The notes: a model not told the origin generated them from the sequence alone. 64,000 bases of DNA from an uncultured Muribaculaceae bacterium (GCA_964609615.1 CAZSRL010000002.1:7933-71932); one strand, 5' to 3'. Positions 3,291 to 60,674 are shown, counted from the first letter of the stretch. A program made the numbers and translations.

Positions 3291-3292
3291 AA

Positions 3293-3322
3293 AACTACCC
3301 TTTTAAAGGGTAGTTTTTCAGA
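3293..3322 (+). terminator. rho-independent terminator after the activase operon
   Basis: ACTACCCTTTTAAAGGGTAGT hairpin plus T-run. Confidence 0.6.
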
Positions 3323-3324
3323 AA

Positions 3325-4010
3325 CCCTATAAGGGTATATTACTGGCTAGCACCACATGGTGCTTTTTTTGTCTGCCAATTGCCTTTGTCACTCTTGCTA
3401 TCCCTTGAAGGGATCCTTATATTCTTTTATGCTTCTTTTATCTTTTATTGCATCTTCTGTTTCTTGTTCTCTTATATATTTTTTGATTGTTGCTTTATTT
3501 AGTCCTACTGTACTCACATAATATCCTTCGCTCCAAAAATGTCTATTCCCATAATTGTATTTTAAATTTGCATGTTCATCAAATACCATCAATGCACTTT
3601 TTCCCTTTAAATATCCCATGAAACTTGATATACTCATTTTAGGTGGAATTTTTACTAGCATATGAATATGATCTATACACGCATTAGCTTCTATTATTTC
3701 CGCTCCCTTATAATCGCATAATCTTCGTAAATATTTTCCTATATCACTTCTTATTTTTCCATATATTGCTTTTCTTCTATATTTTGGAACAAATACTATA
3801 TGGTATTGGCAATTCCACACTGTATGAGACAGTGAACTATCGTCATCATTTTTTATTCTCATAAATTTTATCCTCCTTTTGATTTTTAGGCAGTCGGCAG
3901 ACTACTTTCATTATATCAAAAGGAGAATAAAGTTTGTATTAACGCTTCCGCTATTATATTCTCACGTGCATAGCACGTGGTTTTAAATCTCGACCAAGTA
4001 GGTCGAGATA
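3325..4010 (-). mobile_element. IS200/IS605-family insertion sequence (tnpA only), boundaries approximate
   Basis: Single Y1/HUH transposase ORF flanked by subterminal hairpins (AGCACCAcatGGTGCT at about 3350; CACGTGCataGCACGTG at about 3963; TCTCGACCaagtaGGTCGAGA at about 3986). Confidence 0.7.
3398..3862 (-). CDS. tnpA: IS200-like transposase TnpA (Y1 HUH)
   Basis: 154 aa; HUH motif IDHIHMLV; catalytic Tyr region ...YIREQE; typical size for this family. Confidence 0.85.
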   Translation of the reverse strand: MRIKNDDDSSLSHTVWNCQYHIVFVPKYRRKAIYGKIRSDIGKYLRRLCDYKGAEIIEANACIDHIHMLVKIPPKMSISSFMGYLKGKSALMVFDEHANLKYNYGNRHFWSEGYYVSTVGLNKATIKKYIREQETEDAIKDKRSIKEYKDPFKG

Positions 4011-13219: not shown

Positions 13220-14272
13220 TTAACTAGGTACCTGCAACTTTTGACCAACACTTAACAATGTAGATGTTAAATTGTTAATTCTTTTTAAAGTATCGACTGT
13301 TGTGTTATATTTATTTGCTATTTTCCAAAGACTATCTCCACTTTGTACTTTATATACTAAATAATCACTTGGTGGAGTAATATCTTTTTCAGATACCTTT
13401 AAAACATCTCCTATTTGTATTATATTACTCTTTAAATTATTTAAACTTTTTAATTTTTCAACTGTTAAGCCAAACTTATTTGCTATTTTCCAAAGACTAT
13501 CTCCACTTTGTACTTTATATACTAAATAATCACTTGGTGGAGTAATATCTTTTTCAGATACCTTTAAAACATCTCCTATTTGTATTATATTACTCTTTAA
13601 ATTATTTAAACTTTTTAATTTTTCAACTGTTAAGCCAAACTTATTTGCTATTTTCCAAAGACTATCACCTTTAACAACAGTATAATAATTAACCTTATCA
13701 ACAGGAATATAAGTAATACCTGCATAATTTGAAACTGCTTTAACTACTGCTTCAGTTAATTGTTCATAATTATTTTTTAATTGAGTAACATCATCAGAAG
13801 TACTATCTAAAAAACCATATTCAACTATTATTGATTCCGTATTAGGCGTGTCTCTTAACATAAAATAATAATCTTTACTAGGATCACTTGGTAAACGCAA
13901 TTGATAATTCTTGCGTGTGTTTTGTCCACTGTTTTCTAACTCAGAAAGTATTTTATCTGATAAATCACTAGTATTTCTCAATGCATATATTACTTCAGCA
14001 CCATCACCACCACCTGCGTTTATATGATTAGATATTACAATAATATCTTTTGTGTTTCCAAAAAAATCTAGAACTTTTTTTACACGTGCACTTGGTTCAA
14101 TCGTACTATCATCATCTCTTGTGAGTGCTACAGGGACTCCTAGTTCTCTAAATCTATTATACATATACTTACTTATTTTTAAATTTAAGTCTTTTTCTAT
14201 TATATCGTTGGCATTTGCCCCAGGATCACTACCACCATGACCCGCATCAATTACAATTCCTTTTATAGCCAT
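13220..14272 (-). CDS. N-acetylmuramoyl-L-alanine amidase (Amidase_3) with three LysM repeats, no signal peptide (CwlC-like mother-cell lysin)
   Basis: GIVIDAGHGGSDPGA amidase_3 motif; three YxVxxGDSLWKIANK LysM units. Confidence 0.85.
   Translation of the reverse strand: MAIKGIVIDAGHGGSDPGANANDIIEKDLNLKISKYMYNRFRELGVPVALTRDDDSTIEPSARVKKVLDFFGNTKDIIVISNHINAGGGDGAEVIYALRNTSDLSDKILSELENSGQNTRKNYQLRLPSDPSKDYYFMLRDTPNTESIIVEYGFLDSTSDDVTQLKNNYEQLTEAVVKAVSNYAGITYIPVDKVNYYTVVKGDSLWKIANKFGLTVEKLKSLNNLKSNIIQIGDVLKVSEKDITPPSDYLVYKVQSGDSLWKIANKFGLTVEKLKSLNNLKSNIIQIGDVLKVSEKDITPPSDYLVYKVQSGDSLWKIANKYNTTVDTLKRINNLTSTLLSVGQKLQVPS
13297..13650. repeat. perfect tandem repeat, about 165 bp x 2.2, encoding duplicated LysM unit
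   Basis: Identical DNA blocks starting at about 13313 and about 13478; protein repeat DYLVYKVQSGDSLWKIANKFGLTVEKLKSLNNLKSNIIQIGDVLKVSEKDITPPS occurs twice exactly. Confidence 0.8.
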
Positions 14273-38712: not shown

Positions 38713-39603
38713 TTACTCCTTATCAATTTCAATATTTAATATATTTAATATTCTTTCTAAATCCATTTCACTGTCATAAGGTATTTCTATGTTTTTACCA
38801 GTGATTTTAACCATTGTACCTATTTTCATTCTCATTATATGCTCAACATTTGAATATTTTCTTTCTTTAGAATAATTTCCTTCATGTTTTCTTTTAATAT
38901 TTCCTTTAGATATTAAATTTTCTAATTCTCTTACCGAAAGATTTTTATTTTTAATTTCTTTCAAATATTTAAGTATTTCTTCTTCTTCATCAAGTTTACT
39001 AAGAATTTTAGCATGAGCCATACTAATATTTCCCTTTATTATTTCTTGTTGTGCTTCTCTAGGTAGTCTCAAAAGGCCCAATGTATTAGTTATATAGCTC
39101 CTACTCTTACCAATTTTTTTACTTAGTTCTTCTTGAGTTATATCTAGTTTTTTTATTATTTTCATAAATGCTTTTGCTTCTTCAACAGCATTTAAATCTT
39201 CTCTTTGAATATTTTCAAGTAAAGCAATTTCCATCATTTGATTTTCTGAAAAATCTTTTATAATAGCAGGAATAGTTTTTTTGCCAGCAATTAAACTTGC
39301 TCTTGTTCTTCTTTCTCCAGCAACAATTTCGTAGCCTTTTATACTTTTCTTAACTATAATAGGTTGAAAAACTCCATATTCTTTTATTGATGCAGCAAGT
39401 TCGTTAAGTTTTTCTTCATCAAAATTTTGTCTTGGTTGATATGGATTACTCCTTAGTTCATTTAAATTAATATCTACTATATCTTTTGGATTAGTTTCTT
39501 CAATAATTTTCTTTTCGATATTATCCATATCTAAGGTTTGATTATTAAATAACTGTTCTAATCCGGTTCCTAAAGCTTTTCTTTTATTGTCCATTTCTTT
39601 CAA
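38713..39603 (-). CDS. parB: chromosome partitioning protein ParB/Spo0J
   Basis: ParB box IVAGERRTRAS; HTH; overlaps parA by 20 nt. Confidence 0.9.
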   Translation of the reverse strand: MKEMDNKRKALGTGLEQLFNNQTLDMDNIEKKIIEETNPKDIVDINLNELRSNPYQPRQNFDEEKLNELAASIKEYGVFQPIIVKKSIKGYEIVAGERRTRASLIAGKKTIPAIIKDFSENQMMEIALLENIQREDLNAVEEAKAFMKIIKKLDITQEELSKKIGKSRSYITNTLGLLRLPREAQQEIIKGNISMAHAKILSKLDEEEEILKYLKEIKNKNLSVRELENLISKGNIKRKHEGNYSKERKYSNVEHIMRMKIGTMVKITGKNIEIPYDSEMDLERILNILNIEIDKE

Positions 39604-40372
39604 TCACTTCCTTTGCAAGGTTAATATATGCCTCTGCCCCTCTACTTTCTGCAGAATAAGCAAGAATAGGTTCTCCATGAGATGGAGCTTCTGCTAATTT
39701 TATAAGTCTTGGAATTATTGTATTAAATACTTTTTCTTTAAAAAATTTTCTGACATCTTCTACAACTTCAAGTCCAATTAATGTTCTTCCATCAAGCATT
39801 GTTAATAATACTCCTTCAATATCTAGTTTTGGATTTAAACTATTTTGAGTCATTATTATTGTATTTAGCAATTGTGTTACACCTTCTAATGCAAAATATT
39901 CACATTGTACTGGTATTAAAACTGAATCGGATGCAGCAAGTGCGTTAGTGGTAAGTAATCCTAGCGAAGGTAAACAATCTATTAAAATATAATCAAAACT
40001 TTCTTTTATCATATCTAATTGAATTTTTAATTGTTCTCCTAATTTAAATTCAGCATCTTTATTGCCTTTTTGTACAAGTTCGATATCAGTTCCTGCTAAA
40101 TTAATCATTGCAGGAATTACATAAAGATTTTTAAATTTTGTTTTAACCACAGTATCCTTGATATCGCATTTGCCCATTATTGCATCATAAATACCTAATT
40201 CTATTTCACTTCTATTAACCCCTAAACCTGTAGATGAGTTTCCTTGTGGGTCCAAATCAACTAAAAGTACACTCTTGCCTAGATAACCTAGAGATGCACT
40301 TAAGTTTATACTGGTTGTTGTTTTTCCAACTCCGCCTTTTTGATTAACTAATGCAATTACTTTTCCCATCAT
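39584..40372 (-). CDS. parA: chromosome partitioning ATPase ParA/Soj
   Basis: Deviant Walker A NQKGGVGKTTT. Confidence 0.9.
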   Translation of the reverse strand: MMGKVIALVNQKGGVGKTTTSINLSASLGYLGKSVLLVDLDPQGNSSTGLGVNRSEIELGIYDAIMGKCDIKDTVVKTKFKNLYVIPAMINLAGTDIELVQKGNKDAEFKLGEQLKIQLDMIKESFDYILIDCLPSLGLLTTNALAASDSVLIPVQCEYFALEGVTQLLNTIIMTQNSLNPKLDIEGVLLTMLDGRTLIGLEVVEDVRKFFKEKVFNTIIPRLIKLAEAPSHGEPILAYSAESRGAEAYINLAKEVIERNGQ

Positions 40373-49358: not shown

Positions 49359-49883
49359 TTAGACAATATTTTGGTTATTTTTTATTAATTTAACAAGTAA
49401 TTCTATAAATTGTTTATCAATATCTTTTATTTCTCTACTTGATAATAGTACAATCGAACCAAAAAGTTCAGTATTATTTATCAGAGGATAAATAAATGCA
49501 TTGTTTTTTATGTTTATGTTTTCAAACCAATTGTAATTGTCACATATACATATTGTTTTCTTTCTTTCATTTAAAATATTTAAAAATGGTTTGTTAATAG
49601 ATTTATTTGCCAGTTCTAAACTAGAGATTGATGTAACAATTACTTTTTCCAAATTTGTTACAATAATATTTAATTTGAAAATGGTTTCCAAAAGCAAAAC
49701 ATATTCTTTTATGGTTGTTTCAAATCTTTTAAATTGATCATATTTTTTTAAAATGATTTTTTCTTCATCAACAAATATTTCTAAATTTTCATTTTCTTTA
49801 ATATATAAATAAGTTCTAATTTCTTTTGGTATTACAATTCTTCCTAAATCATCAATTTTTCTTACTATTCCAGTACATTTCAT
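49359..49883 (-). CDS. spoVT: stage V sporulation protein T (AbrB-type N-domain + GAF-like domain)
   Basis: MKCTGIVRKIDDLGRIVIPKEIRTYLYIKENENLEIFVD swapped-hairpin domain; AAGGAG RBS. Confidence 0.85.
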   Translation of the reverse strand: MKCTGIVRKIDDLGRIVIPKEIRTYLYIKENENLEIFVDEEKIILKKYDQFKRFETTIKEYVLLLETIFKLNIIVTNLEKVIVTSISSLELANKSINKPFLNILNERKKTICICDNYNWFENINIKNNAFIYPLINNTELFGSIVLLSSREIKDIDKQFIELLVKLIKNNQNIV

Positions 49884-49987
49884 TTTTACTCCTTTAATTA
49901 TATTTTGCATAATAATTGGATATATATACTACAACTTGACTTTTTATTTTGTCTAAAATATACTTAATATAGAAGAGAGATGATATT

Positions 49988-50488: not shown

Positions 50489-53400
50489 TTAAATGGATTT
50501 TATAATATATAATAATAATTTATTTAATAACTTTAGAAAATCTTCATCTAAATTTAATTTATTTAAAGTAATAATAATATTATTTCCTCTATATTCAAAA
50601 TTAAATTTAGAACTTAGTTTTGTTGTTTCAACAAATAAATCTTCAATTATAAGTTTTTTATATAAATCTTCTTTTAATATTAAAGAAACTTTATATTTAT
50701 CATTTTTCATAATTTTAATATTTAATTTATTTAATGAACTTTCCAAAAGTTCTTGTTCTAAATATCTTTCAAGAGTATTATCAAGACATCCAAATCTATC
50801 TTTTATTTCCCGGGAAATAATTTTATAATCATTTATATCATTAATAGCATTAATTTTATTATGCAATTCTATAATTATATCATCATCATCTGAATATGTT
50901 TTATCAATATGTGTTTGAACATCATCAATGTTAATATTATTTTCTACTTCAACTGGTTTGTTATTCAATTCTTCATTTACTAACTCCAAATATAAGTCAA
51001 TTCCAACAGAATCTATGAATCCTGCTTGTTCTTTTCCTAAAATATCCCCTGCTCCTCTTATACTCAAATCTCTCATAGAAAGTTTATATCCGCTTCCTAG
51101 TTCAGTAAACTCTTTTATAGCTTCTAATCTTTTTCTTGATAACTCATTAAGTATTTGTGATGAATTATACATGAAATATGCATATGCAATCCTATCACTT
51201 CTTCCTACCCTTCCTCTAATTTGATAAAGTTGACTTAAACCAAAATTCTGAGCATTTAATACTATTATTGTATTTGCATTTGGGATATCAACTCCATTCT
51301 CTATTATAGTTGTAGTAAGTAAAACATCAATTTTCTTTTCAACAAAATCCTTCATTGTCTGTTCAGATTGCTCTTTAGATAATTGTCCGTGAGCATAGGC
51401 AATAGTTGCATTCGGAATTAAAGCTTTTAGTTTTTTTAATACCACTTCCATACCATTAATATTATTATAAAGAACAAATGATTGGCCTTGTCTGCTTATT
51501 TCTTTTTCTAATGCCTCTTTTATTAATAATTCATTATAATTAATTACATATGTTTGAACTGGAAATCTATTTAGAGGTGCTGTTTCAATTAAGGATAAAT
51601 TTCTTACACCTACTAAAGACATTTGTAATGATCTTGGTATTGGTGTTGCAGAAACCGATAAAACATGAACAGAATTTTTTATTTTTTTAATTTTTTCTTT
51701 ATGTTCTACTCCAAATTTGTGTTCTTCATCTATAATTAACAAACCAAGTTCTTTGTATATAATTTTTTCATTAAATAATTTATGGGTACCGAATACAATA
51801 TCAGTTTTTCCTGTTTTTAAGTCATTAATTATTCTTTTCGCATCTTTTTCTGATGTGTACCTGTTTAAAAGTTCAATATTAAGGTGAAAGTTTTTAAATC
51901 TCTCCAACGCAGAATTATATTGTTGATTTGAGAGCAAAGTAGTAGGGCAAAGATAAACAACCTGTTTCCCATGCATAATTACTTTAAACATTGCCCTAAA
52001 AATTACTTCGGTTTTTCCATAACCAACATCTCCACAAAGCAATCTATCCATTGGTTTATCTGATTTTAAATCTTCTTCGATTTCCTTTATGGCTTTAATT
52101 TGGTCAATTGTTTCCACATATTCAAACTCATTGGCAAAAACGCTCTCTTCAGGAAAAACTATATTCATAGGCTCTATTTTTATTTTATTTCTTTCTTTTG
52201 AAACTTCAATTAATTGTTTAGAAATATCTGATATTTTTTTCTTAATTTTAAATTTTGTTTTTTCCCATTCCAAACTGTTTAATTTATAAATTTTCGGTTT
52301 TTTCCCTTCTTTAGAGGAATATTTATATAGGGATGTCATACTTGATACCGGTAAATATAATTTATCAGTTCCTTTATATTTAATTAATAGATAATCTTTT
52401 TTTACATTGTTTTTCTCAATTGTAACAATTCCGCCATATATTCCAATCCCATAAACTTTATGCACAACATAATCTCCAATTTTAATGTTTTTTAAATCAG
52501 TTATTTTTTTTGTGTTTTGAATTTTTGATATTGATTTAAAATTTGTATTGTTATTAATAGGAAAAATATCTTTGTCACTTATGTAGTAATTGTTATTTAC
52601 AAATAAACTGGTGTTTAAACCATGAAAAACAAATTTATAAATGTTTAAGTTAAGTTCTTTTATTTTATTTATAATTTTTATATTATTCGAAAAAAAGTAG
52701 ATTTTTTCCTTTTTTTCTTTAACAAAAGTTATAAAATTGTCAATTGAGTCTAATTTATCAACAATATTTTTAACTTCTACATTAATATTTGAATCAACAA
52801 AATAGTCAAGAACGTTCACAAAAAGCTTTTTTTCAGATGTGTGTTTTTTATAATCGTATAATTCATCATCCTCATAATATTTTTTTTGTATGTTTATATT
52901 TTCTTGTGCTTTATATATTTCATTTTCATCTTGTATTATTAAAAATGGATTTTCTAAATAATTAATAATATTAGAAAATGATTCACTGTACTCATCTTTT
53001 GCTGGTTTAATTATTATTTCTTTTTTTTCTTTAATGCTTCTTTGAGTTTCAACCTCAAATTCTCTTATTTGTTCTATTTCATCATCAAATAATTCTATTC
53101 TATATGGTATTAAAGAATTTACCGGAAAAATATCAATTACAAATCCTCTAATTGCAAATTCTCCAACTTCAGTAACTAAACTTGTTTTTTCATACCCTAT
53201 GTCAAGTAGTTTTTTTATTATTTTATCTCTTTTTATTGTTTCCTTTTGCTTTATGCTTAAATATTTTTCTCTATATTTTGTTTTGTTAGGTAATTTTTTC
53301 ATAAAACCATTTATATCTGTTATTAATATTCTTTTTTTATTATTTTCAAATTCATTTAAAAATTGTAATCTAGAAAATGTAAACTCTGGCGACACAGATA

Positions 53401-53641
53401 AAGCTTTTTTTGTCAAGTATTCATCTTCCAAAAATAAATAAACATTGTCCAAATAATTATTTAATGAATTGTAAATTACGTTTGCTTCATTTATTGAAGG
53501 AACCAAAATAATCAAATCATGTGTGTAGTTATCATTTAAATAACATATCATTTGTGAATACATTTCTCTATTATTGCAGTTTATTTTCATATTGTTAGCT
53601 ATTTTAAAATTAAATAAAACATCGCATAATTTATCGTTCAT
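50489..53641 (-). CDS. mfd: transcription-repair coupling factor Mfd (1050 aa, shorter than Bacillus Mfd)
   Basis: Helicase motifs GDVGYGKTE, DEEHKFG; TRG motif; C-terminal KDRFG. Confidence 0.95.
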   Translation of the reverse strand: MNDKLCDVLFNFKIANNMKINCNNREMYSQMICYLNDNYTHDLIILVPSINEANVIYNSLNNYLDNVYLFLEDEYLTKKALSVSPEFTFSRLQFLNEFENNKKRILITDINGFMKKLPNKTKYREKYLSIKQKETIKRDKIIKKLLDIGYEKTSLVTEVGEFAIRGFVIDIFPVNSLIPYRIELFDDEIEQIREFEVETQRSIKEKKEIIIKPAKDEYSESFSNIINYLENPFLIIQDENEIYKAQENINIQKKYYEDDELYDYKKHTSEKKLFVNVLDYFVDSNINVEVKNIVDKLDSIDNFITFVKEKKEKIYFFSNNIKIINKIKELNLNIYKFVFHGLNTSLFVNNNYYISDKDIFPINNNTNFKSISKIQNTKKITDLKNIKIGDYVVHKVYGIGIYGGIVTIEKNNVKKDYLLIKYKGTDKLYLPVSSMTSLYKYSSKEGKKPKIYKLNSLEWEKTKFKIKKKISDISKQLIEVSKERNKIKIEPMNIVFPEESVFANEFEYVETIDQIKAIKEIEEDLKSDKPMDRLLCGDVGYGKTEVIFRAMFKVIMHGKQVVYLCPTTLLSNQQYNSALERFKNFHLNIELLNRYTSEKDAKRIINDLKTGKTDIVFGTHKLFNEKIIYKELGLLIIDEEHKFGVEHKEKIKKIKNSVHVLSVSATPIPRSLQMSLVGVRNLSLIETAPLNRFPVQTYVINYNELLIKEALEKEISRQGQSFVLYNNINGMEVVLKKLKALIPNATIAYAHGQLSKEQSEQTMKDFVEKKIDVLLTTTIIENGVDIPNANTIIVLNAQNFGLSQLYQIRGRVGRSDRIAYAYFMYNSSQILNELSRKRLEAIKEFTELGSGYKLSMRDLSIRGAGDILGKEQAGFIDSVGIDLYLELVNEELNNKPVEVENNINIDDVQTHIDKTYSDDDDIIIELHNKINAINDINDYKIISREIKDRFGCLDNTLERYLEQELLESSLNKLNIKIMKNDKYKVSLILKEDLYKKLIIEDLFVETTKLSSKFNFEYRGNNIIITLNKLNLDEDFLKLLNKLLLYIIKSI
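50803..50822. repeat. copy of 20-bp palindrome TTATTTCCCGGGAAATAATT inside mfd
   Basis: Exact 20-mer; encodes KIISREIK using rare TCC/CGG codons. Confidence 0.8.
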
Positions 53642-53666
53642 TTTACCATCCTTTAAAAAAACAGAT

Positions 53667-54215
53667 TTAATATCTGTTATATTTATTCATTATATACTCA
53701 AAATCTTTAAAAATAAAGTCATTTATTATATTATCTGTTGTTTTTAATAATTCATTAACCTTTTTTAAATCTTCTTTTGAAAAAGAACTTGTAACATAGT
53801 TTGCTAAATCATTCTTTGTTCCAGAAATACCTATTTTAACTCTTTTTATATTTTCTGTAGATAAATTTTGTATAATATTTTTTATTCCATTATGTCCTCC
53901 AGAAGATCCTTGTGGTTTAATTTTGACACATCCTACTTCAAAATTAATATCATCATATAAAACTAATACATCTTTTATATTAATTTTATAAAAATCTACA
54001 AAACTTTTTATAACTTCTCCAGAATTATTCATATATTTTTGGGGTTTTAAAAATATGACTTCTTCATTTTCTATACTTTTTTTTAAATATAAACCTTTTT
54101 TTCTTGATTTTAATTTTTCATTTATTAGATAATGATCTATTGCCATAAATCCAACATTGTGTCTTGTATTCAAATATTTTTCTCCAGGATTTCCTAATCC
54201 AACTATAAGCTTCAT
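53667..54215 (-). CDS. pth: peptidyl-tRNA hydrolase
   Basis: MKLIVGLGNPG...TRHNVGF. Confidence 0.95.
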   Translation of the reverse strand: MKLIVGLGNPGEKYLNTRHNVGFMAIDHYLINEKLKSRKKGLYLKKSIENEEVIFLKPQKYMNNSGEVIKSFVDFYKINIKDVLVLYDDINFEVGCVKIKPQGSSGGHNGIKNIIQNLSTENIKRVKIGISGTKNDLANYVTSSFSKEDLKKVNELLKTTDNIINDFIFKDFEYIMNKYNRY

Positions 54216-55054
54216 AATTCACCTTCTTTTTGTACTTGATTATATAATATATTTTTTGAAATATTATGTTCTTCTGCAACTGTTTTAATTGCATCCTTTT
54301 TTGAAAAACCTTTCTTTAAAAGATTATCTACTTCTTCAAGCAATTTGTGATAGTTTAATTGAGTTTTTTCTGGTTTTAAAATTATCACAATTTCTCCCTT
54401 AACATCTTGATATTCATTAATCGCTTCATTTATCTTTCCCCTAAATATTTCTTCGTTATACTTAGTTATTTCCCGGGAAATAATTATTTCTATATTACCA
54501 AACACTTTTTCTATGTTATTTAGCGTTTTTATAAGTCTGTGTGGTGATTCATACAAGACTATAATAGTGTCCTTCTCTTTTAATTTAATCAATTCCTTAT
54601 GATTAATACTTTCCTTATGGTTTAAAAATCCATAAAATAAAAAGTTTTTAACATCTAATCCTGATGTAGTCAGTGCAGCAACAAAAGCAGTAACTCCTGG
54701 TATTGCAACAACATTATAACCAGAATCTATTACCTCTTTGGCGCTTATTCCACCTGGATCACTTATAATCGGTGTCCCTCTATCAGTAACCAAAGCAACA
54801 TTCTTTTCATTATCTAAAAAAGAAATAATTCTTTTTGTTGCTTCTTTTTCATTAAATTTATGACATGAATATATCTTCTTTTTTATCTCATAATTATTCA
54901 ACAAAGTTTTTGTTGTTCTTGTATCTTCAGCAAAAACAACATCAACTTCCTTTAATGTTTTAATGGCTCTTAATGTTATATCATCTAGATTCCCAATAGG
55001 TGTACTTACTAAAAATAAAGTTGATTTATTATTTTTAAAACTTTTTTGTATCAT
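54212..55054 (-). CDS. rsmI: 16S rRNA (cytidine1402-2'-O)-methyltransferase RsmI
   Basis: LFLVSTPIGNLDDITLRAIKTLKEVDVVFAEDTR. Confidence 0.9.
   Translation of the reverse strand: MIQKSFKNNKSTLFLVSTPIGNLDDITLRAIKTLKEVDVVFAEDTRTTKTLLNNYEIKKKIYSCHKFNEKEATKRIISFLDNEKNVALVTDRGTPIISDPGGISAKEVIDSGYNVVAIPGVTAFVAALTTSGLDVKNFLFYGFLNHKESINHKELIKLKEKDTIIVLYESPHRLIKTLNNIEKVFGNIEIIISREITKYNEEIFRGKINEAINEYQDVKGEIVIILKPEKTQLNYHKLLEEVDNLLKKGFSKKDAIKTVAEEHNISKNILYNQVQKEGEL
54466..54485. repeat. copy of 20-bp palindrome TTATTTCCCGGGAAATAATT inside rsmI
   Basis: Exact 20-mer; encodes IIISREIT with the same rare codons. Confidence 0.8.
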
Positions 55055-55066
55055 TTAAAACTCCTA

Positions 55067-55912
55067 TTATTTATTATAATTTTTTTTTCTAAAATGATGT
55101 GTTTTAATTTTGTTTTCATCGCTTTTGCTACTATTTTGCTTTGTTACAACTATTTTTTCATTGTTTTCCGATATAGCAATATACTTATTTAATAATATAT
55201 CAACACTAATTACTTTTGCCATTCCTTTTTCTGTTTTAACCATTTCTCCAACTGTAGGTAAATTTTTTTTTGCTTCAGTATACATATCATCTTCATAATT
55301 TAAACAACATAATAAACGTCCACATTGTCCATTGATTTTGTTTGGATTAAGTGATAAATTTTGATTTTTAACCATTCCAATACTTACAGAATTAATATTA
55401 TTTAAAAAACTAGAACAGCACAATCTTCTTCCGCATTGCCCAATACCAGATATTTCTTTTGCTTTATCTCTAATACCTATTTGTCTAAGTTCTATTCTCA
55501 TTTTATATATACGAGCTAATTCTTTTGCTAAATCCCTAAAATCAACTCTATTATCAGCAACAAAAGTTAAATATAATTGTGTTTTATCTAAAGTAATATT
55601 TGCATTTAAAAACTTCATTTGTAAATTTAATCTTTTTGCTATTTTTTCTGCTTTTTCTAACGCTTTATCCGCTTCTTTTTTATTTTCTTCGTTTAATTTG
55701 TCGTCGCTTGAGTCTGCAATTCTTATTATTTTTTTCAAATTCTTATATTTTTCTCTTTCAACTTTTTTTAACTCAGTTACAACTTTTGCAATTTGTGTTC
55801 CTTTTTCAGTTTCAACAATAACATAATCATTTAATTTTATTTTTTTGTGATTTGCATCAAAAAAATATATTTTACTATTATTATTAAACTCAACACCATA
55901 TATTTCAACCAT
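55067..55912 (-). CDS. ricT: PSP1-domain protein RicT/YaaT
   Basis: GQCGRRLCCSSFL...GQCGRLLCCLNYE paired Cys motifs; start at MVEIYG with GAGGTG RBS. Confidence 0.85.
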   Translation of the reverse strand: MVEIYGVEFNNNSKIYFFDANHKKIKLNDYVIVETEKGTQIAKVVTELKKVEREKYKNLKKIIRIADSSDDKLNEENKKEADKALEKAEKIAKRLNLQMKFLNANITLDKTQLYLTFVADNRVDFRDLAKELARIYKMRIELRQIGIRDKAKEISGIGQCGRRLCCSSFLNNINSVSIGMVKNQNLSLNPNKINGQCGRLLCCLNYEDDMYTEAKKNLPTVGEMVKTEKGMAKVISVDILLNKYIAISENNEKIVVTKQNSSKSDENKIKTHHFRKKNYNK

Positions 55913-55913
55913 T

Positions 55914-56729
55914 TTACACCTCACTAAACCTTTTAATCAAATTGTCTATAAACAAGTTTATATTTACATTATAATACAATTTTTTATTTTCTTCATTTAA
56001 TATTAGTATTTTTTTTATTATTTTTTTTGAATTGTTGTTTTTTGCAACATTTTCTAATGTAGTTTCCAAATCAAATAAATACTCAATTTTTTTATTATTT
56101 AAAATACTTATACAATCTTTATAAAAATAATTCATTATTTCAAATACTTGAAAAACATCTTCTCTTTTCATTTTTTTAAGCAATTGATAAATTTTTCCTT
56201 GAGATATTATTATTTCATTCTCAATAATATTTATAATGATTAAAGTAATATCGATCAATTCTTGATCATACATATCTTTTAAAGGTAATACTTGATCATT
56301 AAGTTTTATCAAAATACATCTGGATTTAATTGTAGAAATTACTTTTTCTATATTACTAGTTATTAAAAAAGCATATATAAATTCTTCTGGTTCTTCTAAC
56401 GTTTTTAATAAGCAGTTAGCAGCAGAAGTATTTAATTTTTCTGCGCAAGTTATTATATATACTACATTATCATTTATTTGTGATTTTAAAGATATTTCTT
56501 TTTGCAAATCAATAATTTGTTCCTTTGTAATCATTGATTTTTCCAATGTAATTAAATGGACATCAGGATTATCTGTTAATGGTCTTTTTTCTTTCATTAA
56601 AAAACTATTTATTACATTTTCCAAATCATTTTTAATTGCAGGAAAATCAACATCATAAATTAAATATGCATGTCCAAATTTGTTTGTTTTGTTTATTTCG
56701 TTAAACATTTTTTTTAAACTTGTCTTCAT
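55914..56729 (-). CDS. holB: DNA polymerase III delta' subunit
   Basis: N-terminal ...FGHAYLIYD; position upstream of ricT as in Bacillus. Confidence 0.65.
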   Translation of the reverse strand: MKTSLKKMFNEINKTNKFGHAYLIYDVDFPAIKNDLENVINSFLMKEKRPLTDNPDVHLITLEKSMITKEQIIDLQKEISLKSQINDNVVYIITCAEKLNTSAANCLLKTLEEPEEFIYAFLITSNIEKVISTIKSRCILIKLNDQVLPLKDMYDQELIDITLIIINIIENEIIISQGKIYQLLKKMKREDVFQVFEIMNYFYKDCISILNNKKIEYLFDLETTLENVAKNNNSKKIIKKILILNEENKKLYYNVNINLFIDNLIKRFSEV

Positions 56730-56737
56730 TTTTCCTC

Positions 56738-56923
56738 CTACAATATGACTGTTTTTAAAAATAAAAATCCAAATATTGATGGTATTCCTAAAATACTAAC
56801 AATAATAATTGTATATATATTTATTGGTATTATTATACCAAAGTTATTTATAATTATATTAATTGAATATAACATAAATAATGCCAAAACAATCTTTTTT
56901 ATTAACATCATTATTATCTTCAT
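56738..56923 (-). CDS. small membrane protein, BofA-like
   Basis: 61 aa with two TM helices between recR and holB; similarity weak. Confidence 0.35.
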   Translation of the reverse strand: MKIIMMLIKKIVLALFMLYSINIIINNFGIIIPINIYTIIIVSILGIPSIFGFLFLKTVIL

Positions 56924-56961
56924 ATTATCCCTCTTTAAATAATATAAAAATAAATTTCTTT

Positions 56962-57558
56962 TTATGATATTTCTTTTCTATCTCCAAGCGCTTTTTCTAT
57001 AATAAGAGGATCCAAATATTCAATATCAGTTCCAAGCGGTATTCCATAAGATAGTCTTGATATTTTTATTTTTTTTCCTTCTAAAAGTTTTTTAATGTAT
57101 AAAGATGTAGTTTCTCCATTAATATTAGGATTTAGCGCAATAATGATTTCATCTACATTTTTATCTACTCTGCGTAATAATCCCTTAATATCTATATCTT
57201 CAGGATTAATTCCATCTATTGGAGAAATTAATCCATTTAAAACATGATATTTTCCATTATAATTTCCCATTTTTTCAAACAAGAAAACGTTTTTTGGTTC
57301 TTCAACAACACATAACACTTTTGAATCTCTACTATTGTTTTCGCAAATAGAGCAAATATTATTTTCAGTAAGATGATTACATATTTCACATTTTTTTACT
57401 TTTTTCTTACAATTTACTAAGTTTTTTGCGAAATCTTTAACTTCATCATTATCCATTTCTAAAACCGAGTATAAAAAACGCTCAGCGCTTTTTTCACCTA
57501 TTCCAGGTAGTTTCCTAAAGCTTTCTAAAAGTAAAGAAAAACTTTCTGGATATTTCAT
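56962..57558 (-). CDS. recR: recombination protein RecR
   Basis: HhH; zinc finger CEICNHLTENNICSIC; Toprim. Confidence 0.95.
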   Translation of the reverse strand: MKYPESFSLLLESFRKLPGIGEKSAERFLYSVLEMDNDEVKDFAKNLVNCKKKVKKCEICNHLTENNICSICENNSRDSKVLCVVEEPKNVFLFEKMGNYNGKYHVLNGLISPIDGINPEDIDIKGLLRRVDKNVDEIIIALNPNINGETTSLYIKKLLEGKKIKISRLSYGIPLGTDIEYLDPLIIEKALGDRKEIS

Positions 57559-57848
57559 TACATTAATCCTCCCATTGCGTTTGAATACTTTCCTAGCTTA
57601 TTTTCCTTTTCTTTTTCGATTTTTCTCATAACTCCATTAACTGCAGCTAAAATCATATCTTCTAATATTTCCTTATCGCTTAAACTTTCTTCTTCTATAT
57701 CAACCTTTGTTATTTCTTTTTTTCCATTTGCTTCAACTTTTACTGCTCCAACAGTTTCTTCAAACATCATTGCTTCCAACTCATTTGTAGATTTTTGTAT
57801 GTCTTGTTGCATTTTTTTTGCTTGTGCCATTAAACTTTGCATATTCAT
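57558..57848 (-). CDS. ybaB: nucleoid-associated protein YbaB/EbfC
   Basis: MQSLMAQAKKMQQDIQK...VKVEANGKKEI...MGGLM. Confidence 0.9.
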   Translation of the reverse strand: MNMQSLMAQAKKMQQDIQKSTNELEAMMFEETVGAVKVEANGKKEITKVDIEEESLSDKEILEDMILAAVNGVMRKIEKEKENKLGKYSNAMGGLM

Positions 57849-57882
57849 AATTTTCTCTCCTTTATTTTTTTTTATTTTTTCT

Positions 57883-59514
57883 TTATTTTTTCTTTATTTT
57901 TTCTGTTCCGAATAAACTCATTGCTTTTTTTTCTAACTCTGTATAATTATCATTATCTTTTGTTTTTTTTGATAATAATAACTCTTCATCTATTATTTCA
58001 TATTTAATTTTGTTTTTTCTTTTTTCTAAATATTGTTTTTTTTGATTTACCCATTCATTTGTCTTCAAACATGCTACTTTATACCTAGCTTTGTATACTT
58101 TCTTTATTAATTCTTCTATTAATTCAATATTGTTTTTAAAAATTATTTCAGATGATTTATTTTTCAATTCATAAATAACATATTTATCTGATGCTATTAT
58201 TGGTTTTGCATTTAGCAACATATTTGATATGTTATTATAATTTTTATTCGAAATGTAATTAATTATATTTTTGTGTAATTCTTTTATTTCTTCTAATTTG
58301 CTTTTATTAGCATCAACTAAAGCATTATTCACCCTTATATCCATCAAATTATCTAAAAATTGTTTTTCTTCTTTGCTTTGATTTATACTACTGATATTAT
58401 TATTCTCTAAATCATTATCTTTTTGATTTATTTTATTATCTATTTGAATGATTACAGGTGCATTTTCTTCTTTTTCTTTTACTTTCAATAATTCCATCGT
58501 CTCTAATATGGTAATTTCAAATAATATTTTTTGATTTAGTGAAGTTTTTAATTCATTGATAAGAGTTAATATTTTTCTTATAAATAAAATATCAGTGTTG
58601 CTATTTGTTTTAGTTGTGTCATTTAATTTTTTTTCTAAAAGACTAATTCTTAAATTTTCCAAAACATTCTCACAAAATATTTTATAGTTTTTTCCTGTTT
58701 TAGATAATTTGTCTATATAATCTAAAACATCTTTTACATTATTAATTTTTATATTATCAATAAAAGTTTTTACTTCTTCTTTTGGTACCATACCAATAAT
58801 ATCATATATGTTACTAGAATTAATTCTTTCCAAATTATCAGAATAAGCCTGATCAAGCATATTTATTGCATCTCTTAATCCTCCATCAGATAATTCAGAT
58901 ATTAACATCAATGCTTCATCATCTATTTTTATTTTTTCTTTTTTTACTATATATTTTAATCTGTTATATATTTCTTCATTAGTTATTTTTTTAAATTCAA
59001 ATTTTTGACACCTTGATATTATAGTAAGTGGTATTTTTTGTTTTTCAGTTGTTGCAAGAATAAAAATGACGTGATTTGGAGGTTCTTCTAATGTTTTTAA
59101 TAACGCGTTAAAAGCTCCAGTTGATAACATATGTACTTCGTCAATTATATATACTTTATATTTGCCAATATTAGGCAATAGTTTTGCATTGTTTCTTATT
59201 TCTCTTATTTCTTCTACACCGTTATTACTTGCTGCATCAATTTCTATAATATCAATTTCATTTTCCTTTGTTTTTTTACAAATATCGCATTTCCCACATT
59301 TTTCGCCATTATTAGGGTTAATACAATTTACAGTTTTAGCCAAAATTTTTGCAACTGAAGTTTTGCCGGTTCCTCTTGTGCCACTAAACAAATATGCATG
59401 TCCTATTTTATTGGATATAATAGAATTTTTTAGTATAGTAACAATATGATCTTGTCCAACAACATTTTCAAAGTCTATTGGTCTGTATTTTCTATATAAA
59501 ACTTTATAATCCAT
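57883..59514 (-). CDS. dnaX: DNA polymerase III tau/gamma subunits
   Basis: AAA+ GTRGTGKTS; zinc module CINPNNGEKCGKCDICK. Confidence 0.95.
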   Translation of the reverse strand: MDYKVLYRKYRPIDFENVVGQDHIVTILKNSIISNKIGHAYLFSGTRGTGKTSVAKILAKTVNCINPNNGEKCGKCDICKKTKENEIDIIEIDAASNNGVEEIREIRNNAKLLPNIGKYKVYIIDEVHMLSTGAFNALLKTLEEPPNHVIFILATTEKQKIPLTIISRCQKFEFKKITNEEIYNRLKYIVKKEKIKIDDEALMLISELSDGGLRDAINMLDQAYSDNLERINSSNIYDIIGMVPKEEVKTFIDNIKINNVKDVLDYIDKLSKTGKNYKIFCENVLENLRISLLEKKLNDTTKTNSNTDILFIRKILTLINELKTSLNQKILFEITILETMELLKVKEKEENAPVIIQIDNKINQKDNDLENNNISSINQSKEEKQFLDNLMDIRVNNALVDANKSKLEEIKELHKNIINYISNKNYNNISNMLLNAKPIIASDKYVIYELKNKSSEIIFKNNIELIEELIKKVYKARYKVACLKTNEWVNQKKQYLEKRKNKIKYEIIDEELLLSKKTKDNDNYTELEKKAMSLFGTEKIKKK

Positions 59515-59561
59515 TAAAACCTCCTTTGTTTACATAAATATTATACCATATATTTACGTAT

Positions 59562-59966
59562 TTAACTTCTAATATTTTCAAATACTTTAATTATATTTTC
59601 TTTATAACTTAAACAATAATTTGATGGTTTTTTTTCGTATATGGTGTCTTTATTCACTATTTTATCATTTTCTAAATAATAGTAAACCTTTTTTATTCTG
59701 CTTTCTTCTATCACACCTTTACACATTTCACAAGGTCTTACAATGGAATATAGTTCACACTCATCTAATCTCCAATCTTTAAGTTTCTTGTTTGCTATTT
59801 GCAACGCTATTATTTCTGCATGATCACAAATCTTTTTGCTTTTGTTTCTTTTATTATAAGCTTTCGAAACAATTTTTCCATTACACGTAACAATAGCAGC
59901 TACAGGAATTTCATTTTGTTTATATGCTTTATTTGATAATTTCATAAGTTCTTTTTCAATATTCAT
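59562..59966 (-). CDS. tadA: tRNA-specific adenosine deaminase
   Basis: HAEIIAL and PCEMC zinc motifs. Confidence 0.9.
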   Translation of the reverse strand: MNIEKELMKLSNKAYKQNEIPVAAIVTCNGKIVSKAYNKRNKSKKICDHAEIIALQIANKKLKDWRLDECELYSIVRPCEMCKGVIEESRIKKVYYYLENDKIVNKDTIYEKKPSNYCLSYKENIIKVFENIRS

Positions 59967-59985
59967 ATTTTTCTCCTAAAAAAAT

Positions 59986-60058
59986 GATGCACACATATAT
60001 TGAGTGTTATAGCTGCTATCTTCCGATTCTGACTAGTTTCCACTATATATGTTGCATC
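59986..60058 (-). ncRNA. ffs: candidate short-form signal recognition particle RNA (4.5S-like)
   Basis: Minus-strand hairpin GATGCA-CATATAT-GTG-TAG-uCAGaaucGGAAgauAGCAGCUA-CAC-ATATATG-TGCATC then U7; core GUCAG-N4-GGAA-N3-AGCAGC matches SRP RNA helix 8. Confidence 0.5.
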
Positions 60059-60104
60059 TATTTAATTATATTATTTTTTTAAAAATTTATCAACTTATAT
60101 TTAT

Positions 60105-60126
60105 AATTATTTCCCGGGAAATAATT
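60105..60126. repeat. 22-bp palindrome AATTATTTCCCGGGAAATAATT (intergenic copy 1)
   Basis: Perfect palindrome, 12 nt upstream of parS-1. Confidence 0.85.
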
Positions 60127-60137
60127 TTGTATTTTTA

Positions 60138-60155
60138 ATGTTCCACGTGGAACAT
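60138..60155. promoter_or_regulatory. parS: parS-type centromere site 1 (ATGTTCCACGTGGAACAT)
   Basis: Perfect 18-bp palindrome; fits Firmicute parS consensus TGTTNCACGTGAAACA at 15/16. Confidence 0.75.
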
Positions 60156-60252
60156 TGTTACGCTGCATTTTGATATATAATCAACAAATGTTTTTAAACT
60201 TAATATTAATATTTGAAATTTTGAAATTGTACTTTTTTTATTTAATTTTTGA

Positions 60253-60270
60253 ATGTTCCACGTGGAACAT
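60253..60270. promoter_or_regulatory. parS: parS-type site 2
   Basis: Identical 18-mer. Confidence 0.75.
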
Positions 60271-60390
60271 TCAAGTTTTTTTGTTGTTTTAAAATAAAAA
60301 AATTATTATGTAAAACAAAAAAGGTTTTTTATATTTTGACATTTCATATATTTATAAATTATTTACCAGAAAATAAGTTTAAAATAATAA

Positions 60391-60408
60391 ATGTTCCACG
60401 TGGAACAT
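60391..60408. promoter_or_regulatory. parS: parS-type site 3
   Basis: Identical 18-mer. Confidence 0.75.
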
Positions 60409-60496
60409 TTATTATATGTATCTAAGCAATAATATAAGTTTATAAGTTTTAAAAAAAATTATGATTAGAAAATATGTAACTTGTTAACGGTTTTCA

Positions 60497-60514
60497 ATGT
60501 TCCACGTGGAACAT
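60497..60514. promoter_or_regulatory. parS: parS-type site 4
   Basis: Identical 18-mer. Confidence 0.75.
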
Positions 60515-60612
60515 CGGATTATAATAAACATATAATATATTGATTATTTACCTAAATAACGCGTGTTAGACTTTATAAAGATATATATTGTATTAATTAA
60601 AGTGTGCTATTG

Positions 60613-60652
60613 TTAATATAAAATTATTTCCCGGGAAATAATTTTATATTAA
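60613..60652. repeat. 40-bp perfect palindrome centred on TTTCCCGGGAAA (intergenic copy 2)
   Basis: TTAATATAAAATTATTTCCCGGGAAATAATTTTATATTAA reads identically on both strands. Confidence 0.85.
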
Positions 60653-60656
60653 AAAA

Positions 60657-60674
60657 ATGTTCCACGTGGAACAT
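60657..60674. promoter_or_regulatory. parS: parS-type site 5, doubling as gyrA terminator hairpin
   Basis: Identical 18-mer 19 nt downstream of gyrA stop, followed by T7 on the transcribed strand. Confidence 0.75.

Follow-up and report, generated by a model that had tools for sequence, protein, structure and literature searches.

Nearly all that is understood of Noc comes from work on Bacillus and Staphylococcus, in which its membrane-binding N-terminal helix is essential and its binding sites (NBS) are treated as separate from parS. The 14-bp NBS consensus has been given as ATTTCCCGGGAAAT (PMC3020112), and both the co-crystal of Noc with NBS and the CTP-clamp assays were made with a 16-bp site, within the duplex GGATATTTCCCGGGAAATATCC (PMC7383237). 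The helix was reported to be extremely conserved, and its deletion abolishes the function of B. subtilis Noc (PMC4331003), while S. aureus Noc spreads 8–10 kb from each site (Pang et al. 2017). The DNA specificities of ParB and Noc are described as discrete and conserved. According to published mutagenesis, Q173 and R201 are required in NBS-specific variants, along with K/R at position 179 or 184 (~91%), whereas only ~19% have K/R at both of these positions; in Noc itself, position 184 is "almost invariably" lysine.

We analyzed a 64,000-nucleotide stretch of DNA (the window), in which a sequence-only reading had noticed a 20-bp palindrome, TTATTTCCCGGGAAATAATT, recurring four times, twice within genes. 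All four exact copies were verified at the places named (50803–50822, 54466–54485, 60107–60126 and 60624–60643), and the last of them is indeed the center of a perfect 40-bp palindrome. The sites in the window, including a degenerate one, are as follows.

50803–50822 (core 50805–50818), unstranded: NBS copy in mfd, read as I-I-S-R-E-I through two rare codons, TCC and CGG
54466–54485 (core 54468–54481), unstranded: NBS copy in rsmI, spelled with TCC and CGG inside xREITK, a motif conserved in RsmI
60105–60126, unstranded: NBS-1, intergenic, a 22-bp palindrome AATTATTTCCCGGGAAATAATT, 31 bp from parS1 center-to-center
60357–60376, unstranded: degenerate NBS with three mismatches, AATTATTTACCAGAAAATAA on the plus strand, 34 bp center-to-center from parS3
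60613–60652, unstranded: NBS-2, intergenic, a perfect 40-bp palindrome centered on CCC/GGG, 33 bp from parS5 center-to-center

Shuffled sequences yielded an expectation of 0.04 matches to the 20-mer with up to three mismatches allowed, and the proposed excess of CCCGGG was borne out, with five occurrences in the window against 0.26 expected; the fifth, at 20015, has flanks unrelated to the palindrome. The core ATTTCCCGGGAAAT is present in the four exact window copies and in a fifth copy to the left of dnaA, and all five match the 16-bp TATTTCCCGGGAAATA at 16 of 16 positions. Both the core and the 16-mer are letter-identical to the published NBS of B. subtilis and S. aureus, and NBS did not occur in 1.37 Mb of unrelated loci. 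A MITE or other repeat element was rejected, as similarity between the copies ends with the ~22-bp palindrome, the flanking DNA is unrelated from copy to copy and two of them lie in frame inside genes. By its sequence, the DNA word is the known NBS and requires no new explanation of its own; the "rare-codon palindrome" is therefore no longer a mystery. The earlier reading had not recognized the motif as NBS; among the functions listed there, a nucleoid or architectural protein site agrees with the published NBS, while a DNA-uptake, recombination or methylation target does not fit five copies in ~84 kb of a palindromic word whose conservation spans ~24 bp, beyond the CCCGGG hexamer.

Both host genes were identified by family models (mfd, TIGR00580, 864 bits, cutoff 800; rsmI, TIGR00096, 245 bits, cutoff 168), and in both I-I-S-R-E-I is written as ATT ATT TCC CGG GAA ATA. 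Across 48 window genes (15,723 codons), CGG makes up two of 445 Arg codons, both at the NBS sites, and TCC 26 of 946 Ser codons. SREI is encoded by AGT AGA GAA ATA in a SpoVT-like gene, as had been stated, the name spoVT itself being only approximate (99.6 bits against a cutoff of 235.9). Rare codons that were common in motif-less orthologues would have spoken for the protein; 14 RsmI orthologues, however, use AGA, AGG or CGT for the arginine of the conserved motif x-R-E-[IL]-[ST]-K, and NBS is absent from all 14, even from those with the peptide ISREI. In Mfd, the position of the NBS is not conserved at the protein level. The sole two CGG codons in 48 genes and the RsmI orthologues lacking NBS thus uphold the earlier proposal that the DNA word rather than the peptide is under selection, and support the view that selection for the DNA word, at a cost in codon preference, and not the protein, accounts for the intragenic copies. 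NBS words recur in neighboring genes in this form, as the ISREI peptide. The mfd copy is polymorphic, a 99.65%-identical strain having TATTTCCCAGGAAATA with an R-to-Q exchange, while the rsmI copy is kept in other strains. As the mfd site differs between strains, constraint is not strong on every copy.

Mapping relative to the origin, which had been recommended, was done on a reconstructed stretch from −14.9 to +69.4 kb around dnaA (~84 kb of genome). Five perfect NBS lie at −2.5, +8.8, +9.3, +14.9 and +18.6 kb from dnaA, the rsmI copy being that at ~+14.9 kb and the mfd copy that at ~+18.6 kb from the dnaA start. Within this stretch all five are less than 19 kb from dnaA, and the next 50.8 kb of the window contain no further NBS. 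In the gyrA–tadA spacer, NBS are interleaved with five parS sites.

38713–39594, minus strand: parB, spo0J-type, 293 residues, with parS-type residues; start confirmed by a matching protein record
39584–40372, minus strand: parA (soj); the preceding genes are tilS-ftsH and that of a small membrane protein rather than noc
59562–59966: tadA, one bound of the conserved spacer with the parS/NBS array
60139–60154, unstranded: parS1, perfect TGTTCCACGTGGAACA
60254–60269, unstranded: parS2, perfect, also terminator-like on the plus strand
60392–60407, unstranded: parS3, perfect
60498–60513, unstranded: parS4, perfect
60658–60673, unstranded: parS5, perfect, 20 nt 3' of the gyrA stop codon
60693–63140, minus strand: gyrA, the other bound of the spacer

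The proximity of two palindromes to parS was correctly described, with gaps from the 20-mer to the next parS of 12 nt (60127–60138) and 14 nt (60644–60657), but the array comprises five perfect parS TGTTCCACGTGGAACA, more than the two that had been noted. The degenerate NBS at 60357–60376 is probably a decayed third NBS-parS module. NBS-1, in addition, abuts a promoter-like site of the SRP RNA gene. The locus has the features of a parS centromere, namely five perfect 16-bp TGTTNCACGTGNAACA palindromes 8.8–9.3 kb from dnaA and a ParB with R173 and A201. The window ParB reads GKSR...SMAHAK in its recognition region, corresponding to R173, T179, R184 and A201, and its best match among solved structures is B. 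subtilis Spo0J (1e-56, versus 2e-44 for Noc). By these residues it is the parS-binding paralogue, not the predicted NBS binder.

The cognate DNA-binding system that the sequence-only reading had suggested looking for is encoded nearby, in the form of a predicted binder, a Noc-type protein with an NBS signature. In the same species (99.65% nucleotide identity, the public contig stemming from a different strain than the window), a second ParB-family gene directly follows rsmG, ~6.5 kb to the left of dnaA and outside the window (2319–3515 of contig L091; protein P0241); the gene follows rsmG in three relatives as well. An identical protein comes from the sample containing a 100%-identical fragment of the window, and is also encoded on a 92-kb NCBI contig. 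Its best solved structures are those of Noc (7nfu, 1.8e-55, also 7ng0) versus Spo0J at 1.7e-46, and PF02195 and PF17762 as well as the ParB boxes PNRFQPR, ENLQR and GERRY (GERR) are intact. AF2 predicts order at residues 1–207 and 355–398, and the canonical set of Noc domains (CTP-binding, HTH and C-terminal dimerization) is present. The recognition region, LGVSQPAVANKLRLLGL...ISERHAR, supplies Q173, K179, G184 and R201, and hence Q173 and R201 with a lysine at one of positions 179 and 184, as in NBS-specific proteins; lysine at both positions is not found, since position 184 is G. The NCBIfam model TIGR04285 ("nucleoid_noc") gives the Noc-type protein 274.2 bits, below its cutoff of 315, and the window ParB 232.6. 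In a neighbor-joining tree, the Noc-type protein groups with canonical Noc against ParB with 98.5% bootstrap support, obtained by a fast distance method in a rough tree whose two canonical Nocs do not allow helix gain to be distinguished from helix loss. The N-terminal amphipathic helix (about residues 1–15) is absent from the Noc-type protein, which aligns from Noc residue ~23; its start codon is fixed by a ribosome-binding site and by a stop in the same frame, 10 codons before it.

The protein belongs to a large sister subfamily of at least 150 clusters at 50% identity, currently annotated as generic "ParB family" and characterized by a long disordered linker. The N-terminal helix is missing from 152 of 155 members, which have 14–21 residues before PNRFQPR versus 39 and acidic, non-aromatic N-termini; position 184 is N, S or G, with K in one of 149. 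The acidic linker of ~145 disordered residues carries conserved short motifs, one of which, D-[IL]-D-x-L-L-K, may be reminiscent of the FtsZ C-terminal peptide. Relatives with the same Noc type also have perfect NBS at homologous positions, and the NBS/parS array occupies the same place in at least 114 of 120 metagenomic loci of low-GC relatives. In these 120 loci, NBS density peaks at the parS array and falls to ~1 per 45 kb more than 2 kb away. Across the clade sites, T/A at ±1 is invariant in 279 of 281, A at −3 to −5 is found in 83–87% against a background of 36%, and conservation spans ~24 bp; 281 of 287 CCCGGG in the clade loci lie in a perfect NBS core, and the commonest decayed variants, CCCAGG and CCTGGG, are CpG transitions. 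Helical phasing of the NBS-parS spacing (peaks at ~26, 36, 47, 58, 68 and 78 bp) appeared with p ~1e-7 in 98 clusters at 90% identity; it is not claimed here, since the 45 pairs left once the loci were collapsed by single linkage at 75% no longer showed it (p ~0.2).

Based on these comparisons, we consider it very probable that the palindromes would serve as duplex-DNA nucleation NBS for the Noc-type ParB-family CTPase encoded after rsmG in this genome. Hairpin potential is negligible in three of the four copies, so that the shared feature is a duplex word. By analogy with Noc from B. subtilis, Geobacillus and S. aureus, a dimer would read the 16-bp TATTTCCCGGGAAATA, with Q173 reading A1, R201 reading C6 and K179 making a permissive phosphate contact; NBS binding would then cause the clamp to close in a CTP-dependent manner and to slide over several kb. 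Together, the five sites would let the protein cover the DNA around the origin, along with the array of five parS and its two (probably once three) interleaved NBS. As the protein lacks the membrane helix, its effect may be passed on through the conserved linker motifs to a protein partner rather than by direct lipid binding, which is a speculative step. The reading of a Noc-type protein as predicted binder of five NBS is limited by its sub-cutoff TIGR04285 score, the missing K184, the missing helix and the ~84 kb of genome covered, outside which a further, canonical Noc could be encoded.

The same sites and the same binder could also do another job. Rather than serving nucleoid occlusion by membrane tethering, a helix-less Noc might be loaded together with ParB, as another CTP clamp, at a centromere composed of parS and NBS, and there organize or regulate the region around the origin, be it in segregation, in SMC loading or in the control of initiation. 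This possibility, to which we attach tentative but appreciable weight, would accommodate the near-universal absence of the helix in the subfamily (152 of 155, with acidic, non-aromatic N-termini), given that its deletion in B. subtilis abolishes function, as well as the confinement of all known NBS to the 19 kb nearest dnaA and their absence from the 50.8 kb that follow, the density peak at the parS array in 120 loci and the array position kept in 114 of them; a role in initiation control is, moreover, already known for S. aureus Noc. On the other hand, the part of the genome seen is small (~84 kb), the clade density of ~1 NBS per 45 kb beyond 2 kb resembles an ordinary dispersed distribution, and the protein could be brought to the membrane or divisome by an indirect route, through its conserved linker motifs, so that nucleoid occlusion would be preserved. 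In its fullest form, which we regard as somewhat unlikely, the Noc paralogue of a large clade of uncultured low-GC Bacillota would be a CTP clamp with a long linker and no helix, whose NBS stayed or became interleaved with parS in a single conserved composite centromere in the gyrA–tadA spacer, possibly on opposite helical faces, and which would act on origin organization, segregation or initiation via conserved linker peptides, not via membrane tethering. If this were true, the Noc-type protein could represent an intermediate evolutionary stage, with its specificity switched and the membrane function not yet acquired.

Readings that dispense with Noc fare less well. Terminators, cruciforms, RNA hairpins, operators of an unrelated regulator or variant parS bound by ParB might be suspected from the 40-bp palindrome of NBS-2 (hairpin −12.7 kcal/mol, z = −7.7), from the promoter-like site of SRP RNA next to NBS-1 and from the paralogy of ParB and Noc. 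Yet the other three copies fold at −2.8 to −4.6 kcal/mol, no better than shuffles, a terminator scan made no call at any NBS and two copies lie inside ORFs; hairpins and terminators were rejected on the folding energies and the scan. A ParB-bound variant parS is at odds with R173 and the small residue at 201 of the window ParB, the published specificities being discrete and conserved. A dedicated protein bearing the NBS signature is, in addition, encoded nearby, and we consider this group of explanations very unlikely. A restriction-modification or methylation target of the SmaI/XmaI type might be suspected because type II enzymes classically recognize CCCGGG and because CpG transitions, CCCAGG and CCTGGG, are the commonest decayed variants, but AT-biased mutation explains these variants equally well. 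Constraint far wider than the hexamer (~24 bp, with T/A at ±1 in 279 of 281 sites), confinement of 281 of 287 clade CCCGGG to the perfect core and clustering at one locus beside parS make such a target highly improbable; its sites would, moreover, be expected to be depleted or scattered at random, not to occur within genes in spite of codon preference. We give practically no credence to a DNA-uptake sequence for natural competence, in spite of a ComK-like gene between dnaN and recF and the over-representation of the word: known uptake sequences (Neisseria DUS, Pasteurellaceae USS) are non-palindromic, ~9–12 nt long and occur ~1 per kb genome-wide, while here five palindromic copies in ~84 kb cluster with parS and are missing from 50.8 kb of the window.

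The locus thus presents a known motif in a variant system. The new context is a very large, uncharacterized sister subfamily that keeps the predicted NBS specificity without the helix and has its sites beside parS. It offers natural tests of what an NBS-loaded Noc does without membrane binding, of whether two paralogous CTP clamps loaded within a few helical turns of one another act in concert or are mutually exclusive, and of the order in which DNA specificity and the membrane helix arose on the way from ParB to Noc. It also provides an annotation rule, by which sub-cutoff "ParB family" proteins of this kind can be identified as Noc-type.

Compared with known systems, ParB/Spo0J-parS shares the superfamily and the general mechanism, in which a sliding clamp gated by CTP is nucleated at a 16-bp palindrome; the half-sites of parS and NBS are distinguished by positions 1 and 6, read by R173/G201 and Q173/R201, respectively, according to published work. 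SlmA-SBS of E. coli is a functional analogue, in that palindromic sites away from the terminus couple chromosome position to division, but its TetR-family fold and its motif are unrelated to Noc/NBS, and it acts directly on FtsZ. S. aureus Noc (Pang et al. 2017) has the same core, origin-proximal sites with minor sites flanking dnaA and a role in initiation control; unlike the protein here, it is reported to be membrane-associated, and interleaving of NBS with parS is not described there, as compared by description. B. subtilis Noc (Wu et al. 2009; Adams et al. 2015; Jalal et al. 2020, 2021) has identical 14-bp and 16-bp sites. The Noc-type protein resembles it as a ParB paralogue encoded after rsmG (gidB), in its intact ParB boxes and GERR CTP motif, in Q173, K179, R201 and the conserved C-terminal dimerization domain, and in grouping with Noc against ParB. 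It differs in having 16 residues before PNRFQPR rather than 39 and no amphipathic membrane helix, G/N/S instead of K at position 184, a ~145-residue acidic linker and a score below the TIGR04285 cutoff; unlike in B. subtilis, noc is not adjacent to parAB, and the NBS, with a palindrome extended to ~24 bp, are interleaved with the parS array.

The 20-mer TTATTTCCCGGGAAATAATT, singled out in the sequence-only reading as a recurring GC-cored palindrome, occurs in the window as four exact copies (50803, 54466, 60107 and 60624), with 0.04 matches at up to three mismatches expected from dinucleotide-preserving shuffles. The excess of CCCGGG over chance reported there also holds (five observed in the window versus 0.26 expected; the fifth, at 20015, has flanks unrelated to those of the four 20-mer copies), and the 60624 copy indeed forms the center of a perfect 40-bp palindrome (60613-60652). 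All copies in this species match the 16-mer TATTTCCCGGGAAATA perfectly. Judged by its sequence, the word is identical to the Noc-binding site (NBS), in line with the earlier suggestion of a nucleoid or architectural protein site: 5'-ATTTCCCGGGAAAT-3' is the published Bacillus subtilis NBS consensus (Wu et al. 2009, as quoted in PMC3020112), GGATATTTCCCGGGAAATATCC is the duplex co-crystallized with Noc (PMC7383237), and 16-bp NBS sites are where Noc "nucleates" (PMC8429893). The Staphylococcus aureus Noc site has the same core, and the protein spreads 8-10 kb outward from every such site (PMC5540599). No NBS core occurred in the 1.37 Mb of unrelated gyrA-region loci that served as a negative control.

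The copies at 50803 and 54466 lie within mfd and rsmI, two genes whose identities curated models confirm, and encode I-I-S-R-E-I in the identical frame as ATT ATT TCC CGG GAA ATA. In the 15,723 codons of 48 window genes, CGG accounts for 2 of 445 Arg codons, both inside these NBS copies, and TCC for 26 of 946 Ser codons, bearing out the rarity remarked on before. SREI is spelled AGT AGA GAA ATA in the gene previously termed spoVT, as stated; its product (49359-49910) reaches 99.6 bits on the SpoVT model versus a cutoff of 235.9 and has an AbrB-type N-terminal domain, and the gene is better called SpoVT-like. The conserved RsmI motif x-R-E-[IL]-[ST]-K was compared in 14 orthologues from related metagenomic lineages: it is encoded with AGA, AGG or CGT, never with CGG, and none of the 14 carries an NBS, even where the peptide is ISREI (e.g. 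ATT TCT AGA GAA ATA). The position of the NBS peptide in Mfd is variable at the protein level. Hence the NBS inside genes are DNA words specific to the lineage rather than by-products of the protein, and selection acts on the DNA word, as had been proposed from codon bias. Comparison with a 99.65%-identical strain shows the mfd site to be polymorphic, with CAG there in place of CGG (R to Q); that strain retains the NBS in rsmI and the two intergenic ones. An NBS also lies inside dnaX in at least 18 related loci, 16 of these 18 encoding ISREI; among the matches listed, 1 of 388 parS sites is intragenic.

The window comes from near the origin of a Bacillota genome of ~25% GC, and its minus-strand gene order is gyrB-gyrA-array-SRP RNA-tadA-dnaX-ybaB-recR-bofA-holB-ricT-rsmI-pth-mfd…parA-parB…rpsF-ssb-rplI-dnaB. 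A GyrA-based search of the genome contig collection yielded no close relative. The 99.65%-identical strain is found on ENA contig ERZ4239965 NODE_185, which reaches ~20 kb beyond the window, and a contig walk gave the map PBP / noc-type (398 aa)-rsmG-mnmG-mnmE-jag-yidC-rnpA-rpmH / oriC / dnaA-dnaN-comK-like-recF-gyrB-gyrA. The noc-type product, P0241, is identical in SRR8925725 (a sample with a 100%-identical window fragment) and on a 92-kb NCBI contig.

ParB-family genes and parS sites (window coordinates unless stated otherwise)
38713-39594, minus strand: parB, the sole ParB-family gene of the window; GKSR…SMAHAK, giving R173, T179, R184 and A201
60139, 60254, 60392, 60498 and 60658: five perfect parS sites, TGTTCCACGTGGAACA, in the gyrA-SRP RNA spacer
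L091 (same-species locus around dnaA) 2319-3515, outside the window, ~6.5 kb left of dnaA: noc-type gene encoding P0241, 398 aa

Compared with the usual rsmG-noc-parA-parB order, the arrangement here is rearranged, with noc separate from parA-parB, and no noc directly precedes parA in the window. The parA-parB pair (38713-40372) lies ~30 kb right of dnaA, after tilS-ftsH, grouped with the rpsF-ssb-rpsR-rplI-dnaB block, and noc remains after rsmG on the left side. In addition, a ComK-like gene (PF06338; L091 12734-13195) sits between dnaN and recF, as in all relatives examined (L093, L095 and L088), an unusual setting for a homologue of a competence regulator. Elsewhere, the window contains an IS200/IS605-type (Y1 transposase-like) ORF at 3398-3862 and a cell-wall amidase ORF at 13220-14272 with three near-identical LysM-type internal repeats.

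The window ParB is the parS binder, judging by R173/T179/R184/A201 and its best match, B. subtilis Spo0J (1e-56, versus 2e-44 for Noc). The best solved-structure matches of P0241 are Noc (7nfu, 1.8e-55, versus 1.7e-46 for Spo0J), and its recognition region LGVSQPAVANKLRLLGL…ISERHAR presents Q173, K179, G184 and R201. Jalal et al. showed base A1 to be recognized by Q173 and C6 by R201, provided that position 179 or 184 has a permissive K; their deep scan found K or R at 179 or 184 in ~91% of NBS-specific variants and at both in only ~19%. By these residue rules, Q-K-G-R is a predicted NBS-specific combination. Moreover, in a rough neighbor-joining analysis with 200 bootstraps, 98.5% of replicates placed P0241 with canonical Noc, apart from ParB. 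The genome carries a Noc-lineage paralogue with the NBS-reading residues and intact CTP-binding boxes, alongside a separate ParB of parS type.

Two of the NBS copies lie 12-14 nt upstream of parS sites, as correctly described in the sequence-only reading, in a spacer that has five perfect 16-bp parS sites in 535 bp (60139-60673), ~9 kb from dnaA. For a chromosomal centromere array, this density of sites is unusually high; single mismatches are present in two of the five parS sites of the 99.65%-identical strain. A third, probably decayed NBS was found at 60357-60376, 34 bp from parS3. Relative to the dnaA start, the NBS lie at -2.5, +8.8, +9.3, +14.9 and +18.6 kb and all parS sites at +8.8 to +9.3 kb, with no further NBS in the next 50.8 kb after +18.6 kb, nor out to -14.9 kb. 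Within 60065-60126, NBS-1 (the 60107 copy) borders directly on the -35 element of a strong promoter-like sequence (TTGATA-17-TATAAT, 11/12) facing the SRP RNA gene (59971-60068, minus strand), and a Noc-type clamp at NBS-1 could alter ffs transcription. The sole terminator-like hairpin of the spacer comprises parS2 and its flanks (60248-60275; plus strand, 12-bp stem then a T-run).

When metagenomes were scanned for NBS cores with a parS 5-35 bp away, at least 120 loci were obtained. Among the matches listed, almost all are of 20-30% GC, 85 of 120 hold at least two NBS and 103 of 120 at least two parS, and in 114 of 120 the mixed parS/NBS cluster is flanked by gyrA and tadA/dnaX; the GyrA proteins of these organisms are only 52-67% identical to that of the window. 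NBS are densest at the array, again among the matches listed: 2.9 per kb occur in the closest 250 bp, compared with ~1 per 45 kb at distances above 2 kb. Two of three relatives examined around dnaA agree with this picture, L095 with parS-NBS-parS after gyrA and L093 with an NBS that likewise lies between mnmE and jag; in the third, L094, no NBS was found in the 12 kb covered, the contig ending at dnaN and not reaching the gyrA-tadA spacer. NBS-parS pairing is not confined to the low-GC clade: in a metagenomic contig of 49% GC (L183 1553-2335), where noc, parA and parB stand in the classical order, the noc-parA spacer has three parS and one NBS, and the encoded Noc-type protein combines Q173, K179 and R201 with a residue other than lysine at 184. 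Interleaving of NBS with parS is conserved.

Among the matches listed, the clade NBS consensus reaches ~24 bp, AAA(T/A)T-ATTTCCCGGGAAAT-A(A/T)TTT, so the 20-mer first flagged is a real extended site. The commonest non-consensus centers with intact TATTT/AAATA arms in the matches listed, CCCAGG (17) and CCTGGG (15), are transitions at the central CpG, as is the change seen at the mfd site in the other strain, and are compatible with AT-biased mutation or cytosine methylation. NBS-parS center-to-center spacings in the listed matches peak near 26, 36, 47, 58, 68 and 78 bp, a ~10.5-bp phasing at half-integer helical turns by which the two proteins would sit on opposite faces of the DNA; the phasing reaches significance in the set of 98 clusters at 90% identity and loses it after 75% single-linkage collapse. 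The window spacings are 31, 33 and 34 bp.

These data bear on the other explanations of the word. That CCCGGG is a restriction-modification or methylation target, one of the earlier suggestions, is very improbable, since the constraint spans ~24 bp, well beyond CCCGGG, and 281 of the 287 CCCGGG occurrences in clade loci, among the matches listed, are NBS cores. The companion suggestion of a DNA-uptake sequence is contradicted by copy number, symmetry and clustering and deserves hardly any credence. Action through a folded structure or another regulator is a little less remote, though still improbable: folding energies speak against the former, as hairpin energy is no better than in shuffles for three of the four window copies, and a dedicated, predicted binder against the latter. 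A terminator scan found none of the NBS terminator-like, and the feature common to the copies is the duplex sequence. With the word read as an NBS, the live alternative concerns function, not identity, namely classical nucleoid occlusion versus an origin/centromere role.

The P0241 ATG has a good ribosome-binding site, with an in-frame stop 10 codons upstream, and is equivalent to Noc residue ~23, so the protein lacks the N-terminal amphipathic helix. An exhaustive homologue search gave at least 150 representative clusters, less than 50% identical to one another (263-848 aa), and in nearly all representatives the alignment begins at residue 1-10. Among 158 sequences surveyed, 14-21 residues precede PNRFQPR in 152 of 155, versus 39 in B. 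subtilis Noc; the N-termini are acidic and non-aromatic, and the signatures are Q-K-N-R (113), Q-K-S-R (10), Q-K-G-R (5) and others, with K184 once. The subfamily forms a clade in 96.5% of bootstraps, sister to the canonical Nocs (n=2 available), and the absence of the helix is a family trait. The P0241 linker (~145 residues) is disordered and acidic, invariant LL and NPFQ motifs being the sole confidence bumps in it. The former, [DN][IML][DN]xLL[KT], is widespread across the helix-less subfamily (92 of the sequences counted) and presumably resembles the FtsZ C-terminal peptide; the latter is INPFQE in closer relatives.

Following the published mechanism, a Noc-type dimer would nucleate at an NBS, close as a CTP-dependent clamp and slide several kb, and the five NBS might thereby load a continuous zone across oriC and the centromere. 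As the membrane helix is absent, we speculate that output could run via a partner recognizing the conserved linker peptides.

Adams et al. (PMC4331003) described the helix as "extremely" conserved across all Noc homologues they examined, and its deletion as inactivating. The membrane helix and the curated cutoff are two tested defining features of canonical Noc, and P0241 fails both, scoring 274 bits on TIGR04285 "nucleoid_noc", under the cutoff of 315. Neither interleaved parS/NBS arrays nor a helix-less Noc are described in the Noc papers searched, which is not proof of novelty. The motif itself is already known; what departs from the known system is the conserved composite array together with the helix-less Noc.
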